From Escherichia phage EPIMRB01: a DNA stretch of 64,000 nucleotides. The stretch lies in sequence record PQ657784. One strand, given 5' to 3'. A program made the translations under genes and the position numbers. The notes under the pieces are model-generated. The model had not been told where the DNA came from. It did not search any database and saw only the letters and a program-made list of their open reading frames with translations. Shown piece after piece: positions 1,166 to 14,308 of the stretch (position 1 is its first letter; each line of letters starts with the position of its first letter).

Positions 1166-1657
1166 ATGTTTGTAGATGATGTAACACGAGCGTTTGAATC
1201 TGGTGATTTTGCTCGACCTAACTTATTCCAAGTAGAAATTTCTTATCTTGGACAAAATTTTACGTTTCAATGTAAAGCCACTGCTTTACCAGCTGGTATT
1301 GTAGAAAAAATTCCAGTCGGATTTATGAACCGTAAAATTAACGTAGCAGGCGATCGTACATTCGATGACTGGACTGTTACAGTAATGAACGATGAGGCAC
1401 ATGATGCTCGCCAGAAGTTTGTTGATTGGCAAAGCATTGCTGCTGGGCAAGGGAACGAAATTACTGGTGGAAAACCAGCAGAATATAAAAAGAGCGCTGT
1501 TGTTCGCCAATACGCTCGTGATGCTAAAACTGTAACAAAAGAAGTCGAAATTAAAGGCCTGTGGCCTACTAACGTGGGTGAACTTCAATTAGATTGGGAT
1601 TCAAACAATGAAATCCAAACCTTTGAAGTAACTCTTGCTCTCGATTATTGGGAATAA
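1166..1657 (+). CDS. 19: Tail tube protein gp19
   Basis: 163-aa ORF with recognisable T4 gp19 sequence; preceded by TATAAATA late promoter motifs; position between 18 and 20. Confidence 0.9.
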   Translation: MFVDDVTRAFESGDFARPNLFQVEISYLGQNFTFQCKATALPAGIVEKIPVGFMNRKINVAGDRTFDDWTVTVMNDEAHDARQKFVDWQSIAAGQGNEITGGKPAEYKKSAVVRQYARDAKTVTKEVEIKGLWPTNVGELQLDWDSNNEIQTFEVTLALDYWE

Positions 1658-1689
1658 AATGAATGGGGAGAAATCCCCATCCTGCTTAA

Positions 1690-3314
<1,625 letters not shown>

Positions 3315-8437: not shown

Positions 8438-9442
8438 TTAACTTACCAATTCAATCCAAGCCGGACGAAGTACATCTTGTACCATTTTAACTAATTCCTT
8501 TTTAACCAAAGAAGGACTATCCGCTTGAGTTAGAGTAATACCTTCACGAGAAGTTTCTTCCAAAATATCTTGAACAGTTAGTCCCATCACCTTTCCAAAA
8601 TCTTTTGGACCAATTTCGCCAATTTTAGAAATAACGTTATTTACTCGGTTCAGTGTAACGTAACAAGCTAAAATTCCCACCAATTTGTTATCAGCTTCTG
8701 ACAGTTCAACTTTAGCTTTAATAGGCTTATCAGACTTTTTCTTTTCACTAAATTTAGAGTTCTTGCATTTGATGGCTACACGATTGCGATTAGGCAGCCA
8801 AGAAGGATAACAAGGTTTCAATACATATCCTTCAGCGGTAAATACTTCGCCTTTTGCTTCGGCATTCCAAACGCATTTATTTGCATCAACTAATCCAGCG
8901 TGGTCTACCGTAAAATTATAATCTTGGACGACGGAATCTAAATCATTTGGCAATTTAATAAGTTCTTCAAATTTACCGCGACCTAAAAGTGGAGCCATTT
9001 TAAATTTAAATGTATTACAGAATGATTCCATCATATAATCATCGACATAAGTCACATCACCACTTTCTGTAGTAACAATAATGTCAAATACATAAAAATC
9101 TTTATCGCCATAATCGACATTCTTCTGAATGCCAGGTCCAGCGAATTCGCCAAAGACTTGATAAGATACAACCGCTGAAGTTTCCATAATATCTTGTACT
9201 GCTTTAATGGAATCAGCGTAATTCTTTAAAACAATTTCATACCCAAAGAAATCTTCAGCAGGAAGAATAGGACCAGTGCGTTTAGCACAAGTTACTTTAT
9301 CACGCTCAATAATCAATGAGAAATTTGTGCCGTGAATCTTTTCACGAGCTACCCATTCGCCGCCAGTCAATCCTAAACTGTAAAGTTTTTCAATAAATTT
9401 AGAGTTGTAATGATTTTCAAGACTGCTATACTTTTTAAACAT
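8438..9442 (-). CDS. rnlB: RNA ligase 2 (Rnl2)
   Basis: 334 aa; nucleotidyltransferase motif I lysine in EKIHGTN near N-terminus; T4 rnlB length and position after gene 24. Confidence 0.85.
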
Positions 9443-9451
9443 AATTAATCC

Positions 9452-9730
9452 TCAAAATGTAATTTCTAACCAATCACCATCACGCTGATCACTATTGACT
9501 TTAAAGCTAAATCCTTCTTTTCTCAGCCAATCACCAATTTCTTCAGTAATCAATTTATCGCGAGCAGTACAATAATAACTAAAATATGTTTTACCTTGTT
9601 CAGCTGCTTTATTAGCAAGTTCCGAAAAATCTTTAATAAAACACTCTAGCTTAAACTGTTTACTTTTAAGTGCTTTTTCGCGTAATCGATTAGCAAAAGA
9701 TTCATTTTCATAAAGATCATACTGTTCCAT
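9452..9730 (-). CDS. Hypothetical protein (24.2 position)
   Basis: 92-aa ORF in track, co-directional and tightly packed with rnlB; function unknown. Confidence 0.6.
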   Translation of the reverse strand: MEQYDLYENESFANRLREKALKSKQFKLECFIKDFSELANKAAEQGKTYFSYYCTARDKLITEEIGDWLRKEGFSFKVNSDQRDGDWLEITF

Positions 9731-9932
9731 TTTTCACCTTTTTATTAATATGCCTTTTTCTATAAACAACTTTTTCTCGAGTTTCAAATTTATTCTTAGC
9801 AGTCATAGCTCGAGCCCATAATACAGCCACTTCCTTTGCCTGTAAGTTTAATTCACGAGCAATTTCAATGAATGACTTTCCAGACTCATGAAGAGTAAAC
9901 ACCACAACCTCAGTTCTCATAATCAATCTCAT
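9717..9932 (-). CDS. Hypothetical protein (24.3 position); start ambiguous between ATG 9932 and ATG 9920
   Basis: 71-aa ORF in track, overlaps next ORF by a few codons; no recognisable motif. Confidence 0.5.
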   Translation of the reverse strand: MRLIMRTEVVVFTLHESGKSFIEIARELNLQAKEVAVLWARAMTAKNKFETREKVVYRKRHINKKVKNGTV

Positions 9933-10021: not shown

Positions 10022-11440
10022 TTATGGATAGGTATAGATGATACCAGTTTCTAAAGCAGTTTTATGAATGATGTATCCATTACGTGATTCTTGAACATCA
10101 ACTTCTGGATAGTCTTTCATCATCTTCTGAAGGGTGTAACGATGCAGGTAGTATTTACTATCTGGATCTTCAGTTTTCCAATCTTTACCTTCTTCAGTCA
10201 TTTTTTGGATTTCATCCATAACCCACCAACCGCACCAGATATAAGCTGAAGTACGATGTGGAAGAGGATGAACATAAGGCAATTCACCTTCTGGTTCTGG
10301 AGCAACTTTATCAGTTACCTGAACTTGACCTTCTGCTGTGATAGTTTTGCTATCATAATCAGTAGCAGTAACAGTTGCAGTAACTTCAATAGTTTGACTT
10401 CCAATAGATGATGTATCAACAGTGTATACATTAGTTGACCCTTCTACTGGAGAAGAATCTTTCTTCCATGAATATTCGATTTGTGCTTCTTCTGGAGCAT
10501 CCGTAACATTAGCAGTAAATGTAGCCGAAGCATCTTGCTGAACGTTAATAGAAGGAGGAGTCAATGTAACCTGTGGATTCATTGTCTTCTTATTAACTGT
10601 CAATGATACTTCATTAGAAGTAACTTCCTTTTCATTGTAATTTTCAGCCGTTACTTGGGCTACACACTTAACTGTTTTAGCTCCAACTGTGGTAGGAGTA
10701 TAGTTAAATGTAGTAGTAGTTTCTCCATCGACCAGAGAACCGTCAACATACCACTGATACGTAGCAGACGCTCCATCGGGTTGAGAAACTAAGGCAGCAG
10801 TAAATTGAACTGGGGTTCCAATAACTCCTGCTGGAGGATTAGCAGGAGTTACGGCTAACGTAGTTGTCTGTGTTTTCTTATTAACAGTCAGTGACACTTC
10901 ATTAGAAGTAACTTCCTTTGCATCATAATCTGTCGCGGTTACTTGAGCTACACACTTAATTGTTTTAACTCCGCTTGCGTCAGGAGTGTAATTGAATGTA
11001 GTGCCAGTTGCTTCGCCCACAGGAGAACCGTCAACGTACCATTGATATGTAGCGTTTGCACCTGATGGCTGTGAAGCTAAGGCAGCGGTAAATTCAATTG
11101 GAGTTCCAATCACTCCAGCATCAGGGCTACCAGGAGTTACAGCTAAAGTAGTTGTTTGTGTCTTATTTTGAACTGTGATAGTTGTACTAATTTCTGCTGT
11201 TTCAGGTTCAGATTCTGCAACTTGATTGGTTGCAACTACTTTAATAGTCTTTTGACCGGCAGGTCCTTTTAGTACATAACTAAAAGTTGCTGACGTTTCT
11301 TCCTGTGGAGCGTCGTCTACAGTCCAAGCATATGTAATAGGTCCATCTCCAGTTTGACCACTGGGTGTAGCAGTAAACTGCTGAGTCTGATCTATAACTC
11401 CAGTAGGTGTTTTAGGAGTTATATCAACTGTAAAAGTCAT
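10022..11440 (-). CDS. hoc: Highly immunogenic outer capsid protein Hoc, 472 aa with four Ig-like domains plus C-terminal capsid-binding domain
   Basis: N- and C-terminal sequence recognisably Hoc; internal 96-aa Ig-like unit present as two diverged tandem copies; T4 Hoc as I recall is 376 aa. Confidence 0.9.
   Translation of the reverse strand: MTFTVDITPKTPTGVIDQTQQFTATPSGQTGDGPITYAWTVDDAPQEETSATFSYVLKGPAGQKTIKVVATNQVAESEPETAEISTTITVQNKTQTTTLAVTPGSPDAGVIGTPIEFTAALASQPSGANATYQWYVDGSPVGEATGTTFNYTPDASGVKTIKCVAQVTATDYDAKEVTSNEVSLTVNKKTQTTTLAVTPANPPAGVIGTPVQFTAALVSQPDGASATYQWYVDGSLVDGETTTTFNYTPTTVGAKTVKCVAQVTAENYNEKEVTSNEVSLTVNKKTMNPQVTLTPPSINVQQDASATFTANVTDAPEEAQIEYSWKKDSSPVEGSTNVYTVDTSSIGSQTIEVTATVTATDYDSKTITAEGQVQVTDKVAPEPEGELPYVHPLPHRTSAYIWCGWWVMDEIQKMTEEGKDWKTEDPDSKYYLHRYTLQKMMKDYPEVDVQESRNGYIIHKTALETGIIYTYP
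10589..11164 (-). repeat. Two diverged tandem 288-bp repeat units inside hoc (encode duplicated Ig-like domain)
   Basis: Protein units aa 93-188 and 189-284 are about 80 percent identical; DNA landmarks recur at exactly 288-bp offset (e.g. cttattaac at 10589 and 10877). Confidence 0.85.
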
Positions 11441-11449
11441 AAGTTATCC

Positions 11450-12130
11450 TTATTTTAATGTTACGAAAGAAGAATTGCGTGTTTCACGAATTAGAACTGA
11501 TCCGTCACGATTAATGTAATAAATTAAGCTAAACAAAGTTTGGTGTGCCGACGCGTGTTCAAAACTAGTTGGGTGAGATTTCCAATCCGGAGTTTCAGCA
11601 ATCCATTGGTAAATCCACCAAGGAACAGTGCAGAATCCTGGATTTTTTCCAATCAGCTGAAGATTCGGACTAAAGTTTTCCGGAAGAGTAAATACAGACG
11701 GCTTTTCAGATTCAATAATCTCAGCTACAGCCTGCTCGAATTTTTCTTCAACAAAAGGAGTGTCTTCAATCAAAACATCGGTATTTTCAGGAATTTTATC
11801 CGTTTCTACTACTTCAATTTTAATGTCAGATTTAACCGGAGAATCAATCAGAAGTGCTGCTTCTGGATTGACTTCTTCATCGTCATATTTTAATCCGTCT
11901 GCAGCATCAGCAGCATCAATTAAGTCTTTAATAGATAACCCATCAGTCTCTGGCATAGGTTCACTAGCGAGCTTCTGGAGGGCTTCTTCAATATCATTAA
12001 CGATATTATCAAAAGATTTATTCTTTTTGACCTTTATACCAAACTGTTCAGCATATTCAGCTAATTTAGCTTTAGCTTCTTTGTTATCATCAAGAGCCTT
12101 CAGCTCTGCAATATAATCTTTATCTATCAT
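11450..12130 (-). CDS. inh: Inh, inhibitor of prohead protease (internal head protein)
   Basis: 226-aa acidic protein immediately downstream of hoc as in T4. Confidence 0.7.
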   Translation of the reverse strand: MIDKDYIAELKALDDNKEAKAKLAEYAEQFGIKVKKNKSFDNIVNDIEEALQKLASEPMPETDGLSIKDLIDAADAADGLKYDDEEVNPEAALLIDSPVKSDIKIEVVETDKIPENTDVLIEDTPFVEEKFEQAVAEIIESEKPSVFTLPENFSPNLQLIGKNPGFCTVPWWIYQWIAETPDWKSHPTSFEHASAHQTLFSLIYYINRDGSVLIRETRNSSFVTLK

Positions 12131-12179: not shown

Positions 12180-12797
12180 ATGTACCACTTTGTATATGAA
12201 ACAACAAATCTAATAAATGGTAAAAAGTATATAGGAAAACACTCTACTGATGACTTGAATGATGGTTACCTTGGTTCCGGTAAGGCAATTCAGCAGGCTA
12301 TAAAGAAATATGGTGAAAACAATTTCTCTAGAACAATACTAAAAGAGTTTAAAACTTCCGAAGAAGCGTACATGTATGAAGAAGAAATTATAACTCCTGA
12401 AATAATAAAAAGCAAAAATTATTATAATATGAAACCTGGTGGAATTGGTGGAATTGTTATGACTACAGAGGTTATAGCAAAGATGAAAGAATCTTCCGCT
12501 AAGAGATTTGAAAACTCACCGGGCACGGTATTAGGTACAACTTGTTACACTAATGGAACTAAAAATATTTTTATTAAGCCTGGAGAACTTGTTCCAGAAG
12601 GATTTGTAAAAGGGATGGTTCATCCTAATAGAAAGTCCAGAAAAGGATGTAAAGTCAAACCGACTACCACAGGAACTTTTTGGGTCAATAATGGTGCAAT
12701 AAATAAATTAATACAACCAGACGGTATTATTCCCGACGGATTTATTAAAGGTCGTCTCATGAAAAGAGATTCTAAAGGCAAATTTAGTAAGGCATAA
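12180..12797 (+). CDS. GIY-YIG homing endonuclease, Seg family (segE-like by position)
   Basis: 205-aa ORF with N-terminal GIY-YIG-type motifs (KYIGK ... YLGSG); free-standing between inh and uvsW; TATAAATA motif upstream. Confidence 0.75.
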   Translation: MYHFVYETTNLINGKKYIGKHSTDDLNDGYLGSGKAIQQAIKKYGENNFSRTILKEFKTSEEAYMYEEEIITPEIIKSKNYYNMKPGGIGGIVMTTEVIAKMKESSAKRFENSPGTVLGTTCYTNGTKNIFIKPGELVPEGFVKGMVHPNRKSRKGCKVKPTTTGTFWVNNGAINKLIQPDGIIPDGFIKGRLMKRDSKGKFSKA

Positions 12798-12799
12798 TT

Positions 12800-14308
12800 A
12801 TGGATATTAAAGTACATTTTCACGACTTCAGTCATGTACGCATCGATTGTGAAGAGAGCACGTTCCACGAATTAAGAGATTTCTTTTCGTTTGAGGCCGA
12901 TGGATATAGATTTAACCCTCGCTTCAGATATGGCAACTGGGATGGACGAATCCGTCTTTTAGATTATAATCGTCTTCTTCCATTCGGCTTAGTCGGGCAA
13001 ATTAAAAAGTTCTGTGATAACTTTGGCTATAAAGCCTGGATTGACCCGCAAATTAACGAAAAAGAAGAATTATCAAGAAAAGATTTTGATGAATGGCTTT
13101 CTAAGTTAGAAATCTATTCAGGAAATAAAAGAATTGAACCACACTGGTATCAAAAAGATGCAGTGTTCGAAGGATTAGTTAATCGTCGCAGAATTCTTAA
13201 TCTTCCAACATCCGCAGGTAAATCTTTAATTCAAGCTTTGCTTGCACGTTATTATTTGGAAAATTATGAAGGTAAAATTCTTATCATTGTTCCAACAACT
13301 GCTCTGACAACTCAGATGGCTGATGACTTTGTTGACTATCGTTTATTCAGTCATGCAATGATAAAGAAAATTGGCGGCGGAGCATCAAAAGATGATAAAT
13401 ATAAAAATGATGCACCGGTAATTGTCGGTACATGGCAAACTGTAGTAAAACAACCGAAAGAATGGTTCTCACAGTTTGGAATGATGATGAATGATGAATG
13501 CCATCTTGCTACAGGAAAAAGTATTTCATCTATCATATCGGGTTTAAATAACTGCATGTTCAAATTCGGTTTGTCTGGTTCATTACGTGATGGCAAAGCC
13601 AATATCATGCAGTATGTTGGAATGTTTGGTGAAATATTTAAGCCAGTAACGACTTCTAAATTAATGGAAGATGGACAAGTAACTGAGTTAAAAATTAATA
13701 GTATTTTTCTTCGTTATCCTGATGAGTTTACTACTAAATTAAAGGGAAAAACTTACCAAGAAGAAATAAAAATTATTACTGGGCTCAGTAAAAGAAATAA
13801 ATGGATCGCTAAATTAGCTATTAAACTTGCGCAAAAAGATGAAAACGCTTTTGTCATGTTTAAGCATGTATCGCATGGTAAAGCTATTTTCGATTTAATT
13901 AAAAATGAATACGATAAAGTTTATTACGTATCAGGGGAAGTTGATACCGAAACCCGTAATGTAATGAAAACCTTAGCTGAAAACGGTAAAGGAATAATTA
14001 TAGTAGCAAGTTATGGTGTATTTTCTACTGGTATTTCAGTTAAAAATCTGCATCACGTTGTTTTAGCGCACGGTGTTAAATCTAAAATTATTGTATTGCA
14101 AACAATAGGTCGTGTATTACGTAAGCATGGTTCTAAAACAATCGCAACGGTCTGGGACCTCATTGATGATTGCGGTGTTAAGCCAAAATCTGCTAATACG
14201 AAAAAGAAATATGTTCATTTGAACTATCTTTTAAAACACGGCATTGATCGTATTCAGCGCTACGCAGATGAAAAATTTAATTACGTAATGAAAACAGTTA
14301 ATTTATAA
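12800..14308 (+). CDS. uvsW: UvsW RNA-DNA / DNA-DNA helicase
   Basis: 502 aa; Walker A PTSAGKS and DECH box (NDECH); T4 position. Confidence 0.9.
   Translation: MDIKVHFHDFSHVRIDCEESTFHELRDFFSFEADGYRFNPRFRYGNWDGRIRLLDYNRLLPFGLVGQIKKFCDNFGYKAWIDPQINEKEELSRKDFDEWLSKLEIYSGNKRIEPHWYQKDAVFEGLVNRRRILNLPTSAGKSLIQALLARYYLENYEGKILIIVPTTALTTQMADDFVDYRLFSHAMIKKIGGGASKDDKYKNDAPVIVGTWQTVVKQPKEWFSQFGMMMNDECHLATGKSISSIISGLNNCMFKFGLSGSLRDGKANIMQYVGMFGEIFKPVTTSKLMEDGQVTELKINSIFLRYPDEFTTKLKGKTYQEEIKIITGLSKRNKWIAKLAIKLAQKDENAFVMFKHVSHGKAIFDLIKNEYDKVYYVSGEVDTETRNVMKTLAENGKGIIIVASYGVFSTGISVKNLHHVVLAHGVKSKIIVLQTIGRVLRKHGSKTIATVWDLIDDCGVKPKSANTKKKYVHLNYLLKHGIDRIQRYADEKFNYVMKTVNL

Follow-up and report, generated by a model that had tools for sequence, protein, structure and literature searches.

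The window analysed here comprises 64,000 nucleotides of Escherichia phage EPIMRB01 (PQ657784) and encodes a 472-aa Hoc protein on the minus strand (10022-11440), which is arranged as domain 1 (D1), two copies of domain 2 (D2), domain 3 (D3) and a capsid-binding domain. ORFs for a DUF2774 (24.3-like) protein (9717-9932) and RNA ligase 2 (8438-9442) are located on one side of the gene. On its upstream side lies inh (hoc.1; 11450-12130, minus strand), encoding the inhibitor of the gp21 prohead protease; its orthologue carries the annotation minor capsid protein inhibitor of protease in both teqhad and T4. A segE-type GIY-YIG homing endonuclease gene (12180-12797, plus strand; Pfam SegE_GIY-YIG PF19835, E = 3e-9, above cut-off) is situated between inh and the uvsW ORF (12800-14308). 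The genomic position of hoc is thus conserved as in T4, with rnlB/24.2/24.3 on one side and inh-(segE)-uvsW on the other, and both phages share the gene order 24.3 - hoc - inh. The first 25 kb are 100% identical to Escherichia phage AUBRB02 (OY979771.1), a Tequatrovirus, in which the identical gene is annotated as hoc.

A phmmer search of PDB sequences identified T4 Hoc (5vf3_Z) as a homolog of the EPIMRB01 protein with E = 4e-246. The alignment consists of two stretches, pairing query residues 1-190 with T4 1-190 and query residues 195-472 with T4 99-376 (domain score 531 bits), the last ~92 residues of the latter being almost identical. Because these stretches overlap on the T4 protein, domain 2 of T4 Hoc (residues ~93-188) is represented twice in EPIMRB01. 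The preliminary description had given a length of 376 aa for T4 Hoc, which is correct (PDB 5vf3_Z) and makes EPIMRB01 Hoc 96 aa longer. A C-terminal capsid-binding domain homologous to T4 residues ~281-376, which characterises Hoc, is present, and this C-terminal block is invariant across 34 aligned homologues. The block includes H395, R396, W402 and W406, which correspond to the T4 capsid contacts His299, Arg300, Trp306 and Trp310 (PMC10385173). In addition, the Pfam PKD family (PF00801) matches EPIMRB01 Hoc with E = 2.5e-11 and 43.9 bits (cut-off 23.5) in two stretches, the better of which covers residues 196-265 in the second D2 copy. BiPBP_C also exceeds its cut-off (38.3 versus 26.8 bits), and Ig_3, Ig_2 and I-set matches fall below theirs. 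The duplicated unit is an Ig-like (PKD-type) domain.

Tandem Repeats Finder detected a repeat with a period of 288 nt and 2.0 copies at 10583-11164 (78% matches, score 724), and a second repeat search likewise found two 288-nt copies with 78% identity. At an offset of 288 nt, identity is ~0.6-0.9 within the repeat, compared with ~0.13-0.5 (mostly near 0.3) in the rest of hoc, and the repeat is therefore real and far beyond chance. As the period equals exactly 96 codons, the repeat is in frame, and its in-frame boundaries (10589-11164) are those given in the preliminary description. The copy identity of about 80% claimed there was measured as 74 of 96 residues (77%) at the protein level and 224 of 288 positions (77.8%) at the DNA level. 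The edges of the repeat are blurred by ~18 nt because the linkers are alike, with TVQNKT preceding copy 1 and TVNKKT following each copy.

From the N-terminus, Hoc begins with Ig-like domain 1 (aa 1-92; 11165-11440, minus strand), which aligns with T4 Hoc 1-92 and has predicted beta strands with a pLDDT of 81-92. It is followed by D2 copy 1 (aa 93-188; 10877-11164, minus strand), a module type here termed alpha that ends in S183-L184-T185 and is covered by the repeat searches and by Pfam PKD and BiPBP_C matches (pLDDT ~82-95). D2 copy 2 (aa 189-284; 10589-10876, minus strand) is of the gamma type, ends in S279-L280-T281, contains the best PKD stretch and was likewise recovered by the repeat searches (pLDDT ~93-95). 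D3 (aa 285-380; 10301-10588, minus strand) aligns with T4 Hoc 189-284 and shows Pfam Ig_3 and I-set similarity at residues 289-373 (pLDDT ~80-93). The capsid-binding domain at the C-terminus (aa 381-472), together with the stop codon, occupies 10022-10300 on the minus strand and is nearly identical to T4 Hoc 285-376.

An AlphaFold2 model based on an alignment of 34 homologues has a mean pLDDT of 84, and four beta-sandwich domains are predicted over residues 1-376, where most block means lie at 80-95. Both D2 copies show the same strand pattern in this model, with a pLDDT of ~82-95. The C-terminal domain was modelled with low confidence (pLDDT 37-67), which we attribute to the shallow alignment, and is almost identical in sequence to the solved T4 domain. 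The best Foldseek matches in the PDB are proteins with four tandem Ig domains, namely Dscam1 Ig1-4, Sidekick-2 Ig1-4 and ICAM-5 D1-D4. AlphaFold2, Foldseek, Pfam and the T4 alignment thus agree on the four tandem Ig-like folds and the capsid-binding domain expected beforehand. EPIMRB01 Hoc is accordingly predicted to be a five-domain fibre composed of D1, two diverged D2 copies, D3 and a capsid-binding domain at the C-terminus, which would bind one gp23 hexamer; in T4-like phages, every gp23 hexamer of the mature capsid has one Hoc molecule at its centre. T4 Hoc forms a fibre of ~180 Å with four domains (PMC10385173). The two proteins are alike in their conserved capsid-contact residues and in being acidic, all-beta fibres, and differ in that T4 Hoc (376 aa; PDB 5vf3, 8t1x, 8t9r, 9mkb, 9mof) contains one D2 and EPIMRB01 Hoc two, neither of which is of the T4 type.

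Tandem repeats are a known source of misassembly, and the second module could in principle represent a spurious expansion of a single D2 during assembly. However, copies that are 78% identical neither collapse nor expand in assembly, the reading frame is intact, and the same repeat recurs in many independent assemblies and in metagenome-derived contigs. An assembly artefact can therefore be rejected and has a negligible probability.

The two EPIMRB01 copies differ from each other with dS = 0.73, dN = 0.155 and dN/dS = 0.21. Of the 51 strand positions, only 6 carry substitutions between them, compared with 16 of the 45 non-strand positions (Fisher p = 0.007). Across phages, copies 1 resemble each other more (mean identity 0.88) than they resemble copies 2 (mean 0.79), and copies 2 are likewise closer to other copies 2. 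From these synonymous and non-synonymous distances, the strand/loop bias and the positional orthology it follows that the duplication is old and that both copies are kept under purifying selection as folded domains, with differences mainly in loops. A recent, lineage-specific duplication that created a new Hoc architecture would agree with the additional 96 aa relative to the T4 reference, and an explicit four-Ig Tequatrovirus Hoc was not found in the searched literature. It is refuted, however, by the divergence of the copies at 22% of nucleotides, by the occurrence of two-copy hoc genes, 88-97.5% identical, in dozens of phages that were sequenced independently of one another (wV7, ime09, AR1, PP01, HP3 and pSs-1 among them), and by the fact that each copy is closer to its positional counterpart in other phages than to its sister copy; we consider it extremely improbable.

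A megablast search with hoc matched 680 phage records. After AUBRB02, the best matches (pSs-1, ECP2301, ime09, JEP6, HP3, U115 and others) contain the same 1419-bp gene with 95-97.5% nucleotide identity. Records were sampled in even steps down the megablast ranking, yielding 50 with a full-length hoc match and two further records. The full-length matches were 1419-1425 bp long in 24 of the 50 records and ~1131 bp, corresponding to the T4 form, in the other 26. The two further records (ESh34 and TOPO13) showed a match pattern that suggests three copies, which places three-copy genes at ~2 of 52 in this sample. In the protein database, Hoc falls into discrete length classes of 376 aa with one D2, 472 aa with two and 568-570 aa with three, the last being encoded by Shigella phage ESh16 and Escherichia phages UGKSEcP1 and UGKSEcP2. 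Several clusters of 472-aa Hocs comprise 58-167 member sequences each. Different copy numbers are also found among genome neighbours with ~97% identity over 25 kb, as ESh16 has a hoc of 1707 bp (568 aa) with three copies and Shfl2 one of 1131 bp (376 aa) with a single copy, and in several relatives hoc is frameshifted or split. In a scan of IMG/VR for D2-D2 and D2-D3 junctions, a D2-D2 junction was present in one contig from a small sample of only four with this Hoc type, which is consistent with a copy-number polymorphism.

The 472-aa Hocs (pSs-1, ime09, HP3, ECP2301, JEP6, U115, PP01, AR1, wV7 and others) share the five-domain architecture of EPIMRB01, are encoded by genes of 1419-1425 bp with 88-97.5% nucleotide identity, and carry the annotation Hoc-like head decoration or PKD domain protein. 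They differ from EPIMRB01 Hoc only by point substitutions and by mosaic exchange within the D2 modules. The extra domain reported in the preliminary description, and with it the four-Ig architecture, is therefore real but not unusual, as it is shared by relatives such as pSs-1, ime09, HP3 and ECP2301 and by 24 of the 50 sampled matches. The 472-aa Hoc is a lineage-typical, common allele and represents one state of a polymorphism with one, two or three D2 copies.

Many deposited Tequatrovirus genomes already contain this Hoc form as an annotated gene, and it has been published that Hoc proteins differ in how many Ig domains they have, with homologues containing 1 to 10 Ig-like domains (PMC10385173). 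By itself, the finding of a 472-aa Hoc thus matters little. In the literature searched, neither a four-Ig Tequatrovirus Hoc nor copy-number variation of D2 was explicitly described, an absence that is no proof of their being unpublished. Within the same literature, we also found no description of a within-genus polymorphism of one, two or three copies of a single module or of chimeric deletion products.

The additional unit had been interpreted as a second copy of an internal 96-aa Ig-like unit. The in-frame duplication of a diverged 288-bp unit holds, but a view of the protein as T4 Hoc with one copy added is too simple, as T4 D2 shares only 78% and 83% nucleotide identity with EPIMRB01 copies 1 and 2, respectively, and 90% with the middle copy of ESh16. 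EPIMRB01 copy 1 is 92% identical to copy 1 of ESh16 and 99% identical to copy 1 of pSs-1, and EPIMRB01 copy 2 is 94% identical to copy 3 of ESh16 and 95% identical to copy 2 of pSs-1. Judging from these sequence identities, at least three old D2 module types exist, here named alpha, beta and gamma, with EPIMRB01 being alpha-gamma, T4 beta and ESh16 alpha-beta-gamma. The hoc genes of ESh16 and of UGKSEcP1/UGKSEcP2 have flanks that nearly match the EPIMRB01 gene (99.6% and 98.2% nucleotide identity). Their first and last D2 modules correspond to EPIMRB01 copy 1 and copy 2, and a third, T4-like D2 that is absent in EPIMRB01 is located between the outer two. A recent origin of this middle module as a hybrid with a copy-2-like 5' and a copy-1-like 3' part, the expected product of a recent unequal crossover between two-copy genes, was considered and rejected, since it is a separate old type with 76-79% identity to its neighbours and 90% identity to T4 D2.

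The same identities would also be expected if the two-copy hoc had lost the middle module of an ancestral alpha-beta-gamma array, of which one-copy genes such as that of T4 (beta) would be other deletion products, and deletion products are directly observed (see below). Contrastingly, three-copy genes are rare in the sample, and modules are strongly mosaic, with the arrays alpha-beta, alpha-gamma, beta-beta, beta-gamma and alpha-gamma-beta all present in the population and suggesting no simple ancestral order. We regard such a three-module ancestor as possible but rather unlikely. The heavy mosaicism of the module types across the population obscures the ancestral copy number and order.

As a further consequence of this mosaicism, only two positions (unit positions 51-52) strictly separate copy 1 from copy 2 in all two-copy Hocs, and each of the 77 one-copy Hocs was therefore typed by comparison with whichever two-copy Hoc most resembled it in the flanks. 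Their D2 units comprise 58 mosaics, 9 pure types and 10 clean chimeras that change from copy 1 to copy 2 at no fewer than six distinct breakpoints, with no clean chimera in the opposite direction; as the database clusters do not represent independent events, the nominal p value overstates this 10:0 asymmetry. At the DNA level, the single D2 of teqhad is a chimera of this kind with a single switch from copy 1 to copy 2 near its 3' end, that of PYps11T is copy-1-like and that of Geo is copy-2-like. The 5' flanks of all three genes are 99.6% identical to EPIMRB01 hoc. Furthermore, the Logan contig L013 encodes a 376-aa Hoc whose flanks are identical to EPIMRB01 hoc at 273 of 276 and 563 of 567 nt, and within its D2, copy-1 sequence gives way to copy-2 sequence near unit nt 100-116. 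An inh orthologue with Pfam Phage_Inh_N and Phage_Inh_C domains is encoded on the same contig.

A misaligned exchange between the tandem copies with loss of 288 bp would yield exactly such a hybrid, resembling copy 1 in its 5' part and copy 2 in its 3' part, and the chimeras thus point to recurrent 288-bp deletion by unequal homologous recombination. Recombination is very active in T-even phages, which fits recurrent deletion. In the proposed scenario, the two D2 copies go back to a 288-bp (96-aa) module that was duplicated in tandem and in frame long ago, and misaligned exchange between copy 1 and copy 2 would remove exactly 288 bp, leaving a single D2 with a copy-1-like 5' part and a copy-2-like 3' part. 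Allelic exchange and gene conversion would in turn generate mosaic modules. As a counterpoint, 58 of the 77 one-copy D2 units are complex mosaics, and allelic recombination without deletion could explain some of the patterns. Expansions lack documentation of the kind seen for deletions, because three-copy hoc genes have a middle copy of old type instead of a newly formed hybrid. Taken together, the two-copy hoc very probably reflects an old duplication of D2 whose copy number (one, two or three, corresponding to 376, 472 and 568 aa) varies through homologous recombination between modules.

The segE-type gene between inh and uvsW could act as a local driver of such recombination. T4 segE occupies the same position between inh and uvsW (PMC2988022), and when SegE homes into phages without the gene, flanking sequence is co-converted as well (PMC2330249). 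Double-strand-break repair at a distance of ~0.7-1.6 kb from the repeat could promote exchange in hoc in mixed infections. The Logan contig with the chimeric D2 has no segE-type gene. We further speculate that the D2 region is a recombination-driven array of cassettes in which at least three old module types are freely reshuffled in one to three copies, with breaks introduced by SegE as a potential stimulus and with selection acting on how long the fibre is and which glycan-binding loops it presents; this extended proposal is tentative and, as a whole, unlikely.

With each extra module, the exposed fibre would become longer by one Ig domain and gain one more set of surface loops, and the loops added by the extra D2 would include a second S-L-T motif. 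In EPIMRB01, the duplication probably extends the fibre by a single Ig domain and adds a further set of variable loops. An S-L-T motif occurs twice in its Hoc, at residues 183-185 and 279-281. Mucin-glycan binding (BAM model), a trait ascribed to the Hoc of T4-like phages, is covered in the literature for T4, phiPNJ-6 and phiPNJ-9. The Hoc of phage phiPNJ-9 requires S183-L184-T185 at the end of its domain 2 for binding to MUC2, and M13 phage displaying this domain adhered to mouse colon (J Virol 2024, PMC11853027). This protein is T4-like and differs from T4 Hoc in its number of Ig-like domains, and the numbering of its motif equals that of EPIMRB01 copy 1. Unlike EPIMRB01 Hoc, it has fewer domains rather than more, as it lacks domain 3, and its gene shares ~65% nucleotide identity with T4 hoc. 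An altered mucus adherence conferred by the extra D2, as proposed in the preliminary description, is plausible. A doubled D2 need not alter adherence, however, because MUC2 is bound by domain 1 and not by domain 2 in the Hoc of phiPNJ-6.

Alternatively, D2 copy number might be selectively neutral, with the extra domain serving as a spacer and the polymorphism resulting from the high recombination of T-even phages acting on a non-essential gene. Laboratory growth does not require Hoc (PMC10385173), genes with one and with two copies are similarly common and can have almost the same flanks, and the frameshifted or split hoc genes of several relatives, like the domain 1-mediated binding of phiPNJ-6, are in agreement with neutrality. 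By contrast, the dN/dS of 0.21 indicates that both copies are maintained as proteins, inter-copy differences are concentrated in loops, and the S-L-T motif and displayed domain 2 of phiPNJ-9 have a role in MUC2 binding and colon adherence. Furthermore, a single substitution in domain 3 of T4 Hoc (D246N) changes binding to fucosylated glycans and fitness on a mucosal surface (PMC9271167). Neutrality is hence a serious possibility, although one to which we assign somewhat less than an even chance.

Hoc copy number appears to change easily by recombination. Studies of mucus adherence, phage display and vaccine scaffolds take T4 as their Hoc reference, yet about half of the T4-like coliphages found in nature have a fibre that is one or two Ig domains longer than that of T4. 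An effect of copy number on mucus binding or immunogenicity, should one exist, would bear on the comparison or engineering of therapeutic T4-like phages. Should D2 be a freely reshuffled array under selection, Hoc copy number would be a means of tuning mucosal adherence and the phage equivalent of bacterial adhesins with variable copy number, with relevance to the choice of therapeutic phages.

Some bacterial surface adhesins, such as those of the Rib/alpha C protein family, contain tandem Ig-like domains whose number differs between strains as a result of recombination. In both these adhesins and Hoc, a whole folded domain is repeated in tandem and in frame along an exposed fibre, and its copy number changes through homologous recombination between the repeats. 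For Hoc, nothing points to copy number being under immune or host selection, and its repeats are far more diverged (78% identity) and far fewer (one to three) than those of the adhesins. Among Hoc proteins, that of Serratia phage Muldoon reaches 1174 aa with 10 Ig-like domains (Fokine et al. 2023, PMC10385173). Variation of the Muldoon type occurs between distant genera, whereas that described here for EPIMRB01 and its relatives occurs within one genus, between nearly identical flanks, and affects one specific module.

A contig of Logan accession SRR27361832 (L013) carries at 1501-2631 a hoc gene with a 376-aa product, whose flanks are identical to the window gene at 273 of 276 and 563 of 567 nt. 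Its sole domain 2 is a hybrid of the window's copy 1 and copy 2 modules, with a crossover near nt 100-116 of the repeat unit, and the gene appears to derive directly from a window-like hoc by deletion of 288 bp. Shigella phage ESh16 (ON528726.1), which over the 25 kb compared is the nearest genome-level neighbor to the window phage, encodes a 568-aa Hoc with three domain 2 modules (1453-3159 of locus L008). The middle module of this gene is the closest relative of the single domain 2 of T4 (90% nucleotide identity).

In several close relatives (GenBank MZ501066, MK327940, OR757454 and MZ234018), hoc is divided into two CDS or is 1-77 nt off in length. The gene measures 1420 bp in FriedrichMiescher, where it is annotated as 'Hoc part 1/part 2', 1474 bp in vB_EcoM_G29, 1496 bp in BYEP02 (439-aa product) and 1418 bp in 101117BS1. 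These odd genes represent either frameshifts or insertions, or else sequencing errors; since hoc is dispensable under laboratory conditions, its loss would fit.

A SegE-type GIY-YIG homing endonuclease gene (12180-12797, plus strand; 205 aa) lies between inh and uvsW, as does its counterpart in T4, and is annotated merely as a hypothetical protein in Escherichia phage AUBRB02. Contig L013 lacks this gene, although it is elsewhere ~98-99% identical, and its uvsW-inh spacing is 50 nt; the presence of the endonuclease gene directly adjoining hoc is therefore variable among phages. The 502-aa uvsW ORF (12800-14308, plus strand) is immediately followed in the AUBRB02 annotation by a short separate CDS, 'uvsW_2'; this layout agrees with that known for uvsW/uvsW.1 in T4, so uvsW is not disrupted.

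Two plus-strand ORFs antisense to inh (11540-11893 and 11760-12116; 117 and 118 aa) have non-ATG starts and an odd composition, and are most likely spurious. Two in-frame short tandem repeats look like trivial low complexity: CAGTAGCAGTAA x2 (10360-10384) falls in the part of Hoc domain 3 that reads VTATVTATDY, and GCAGCATCA x2 (11901-11918) encodes DAADAAD in inh.
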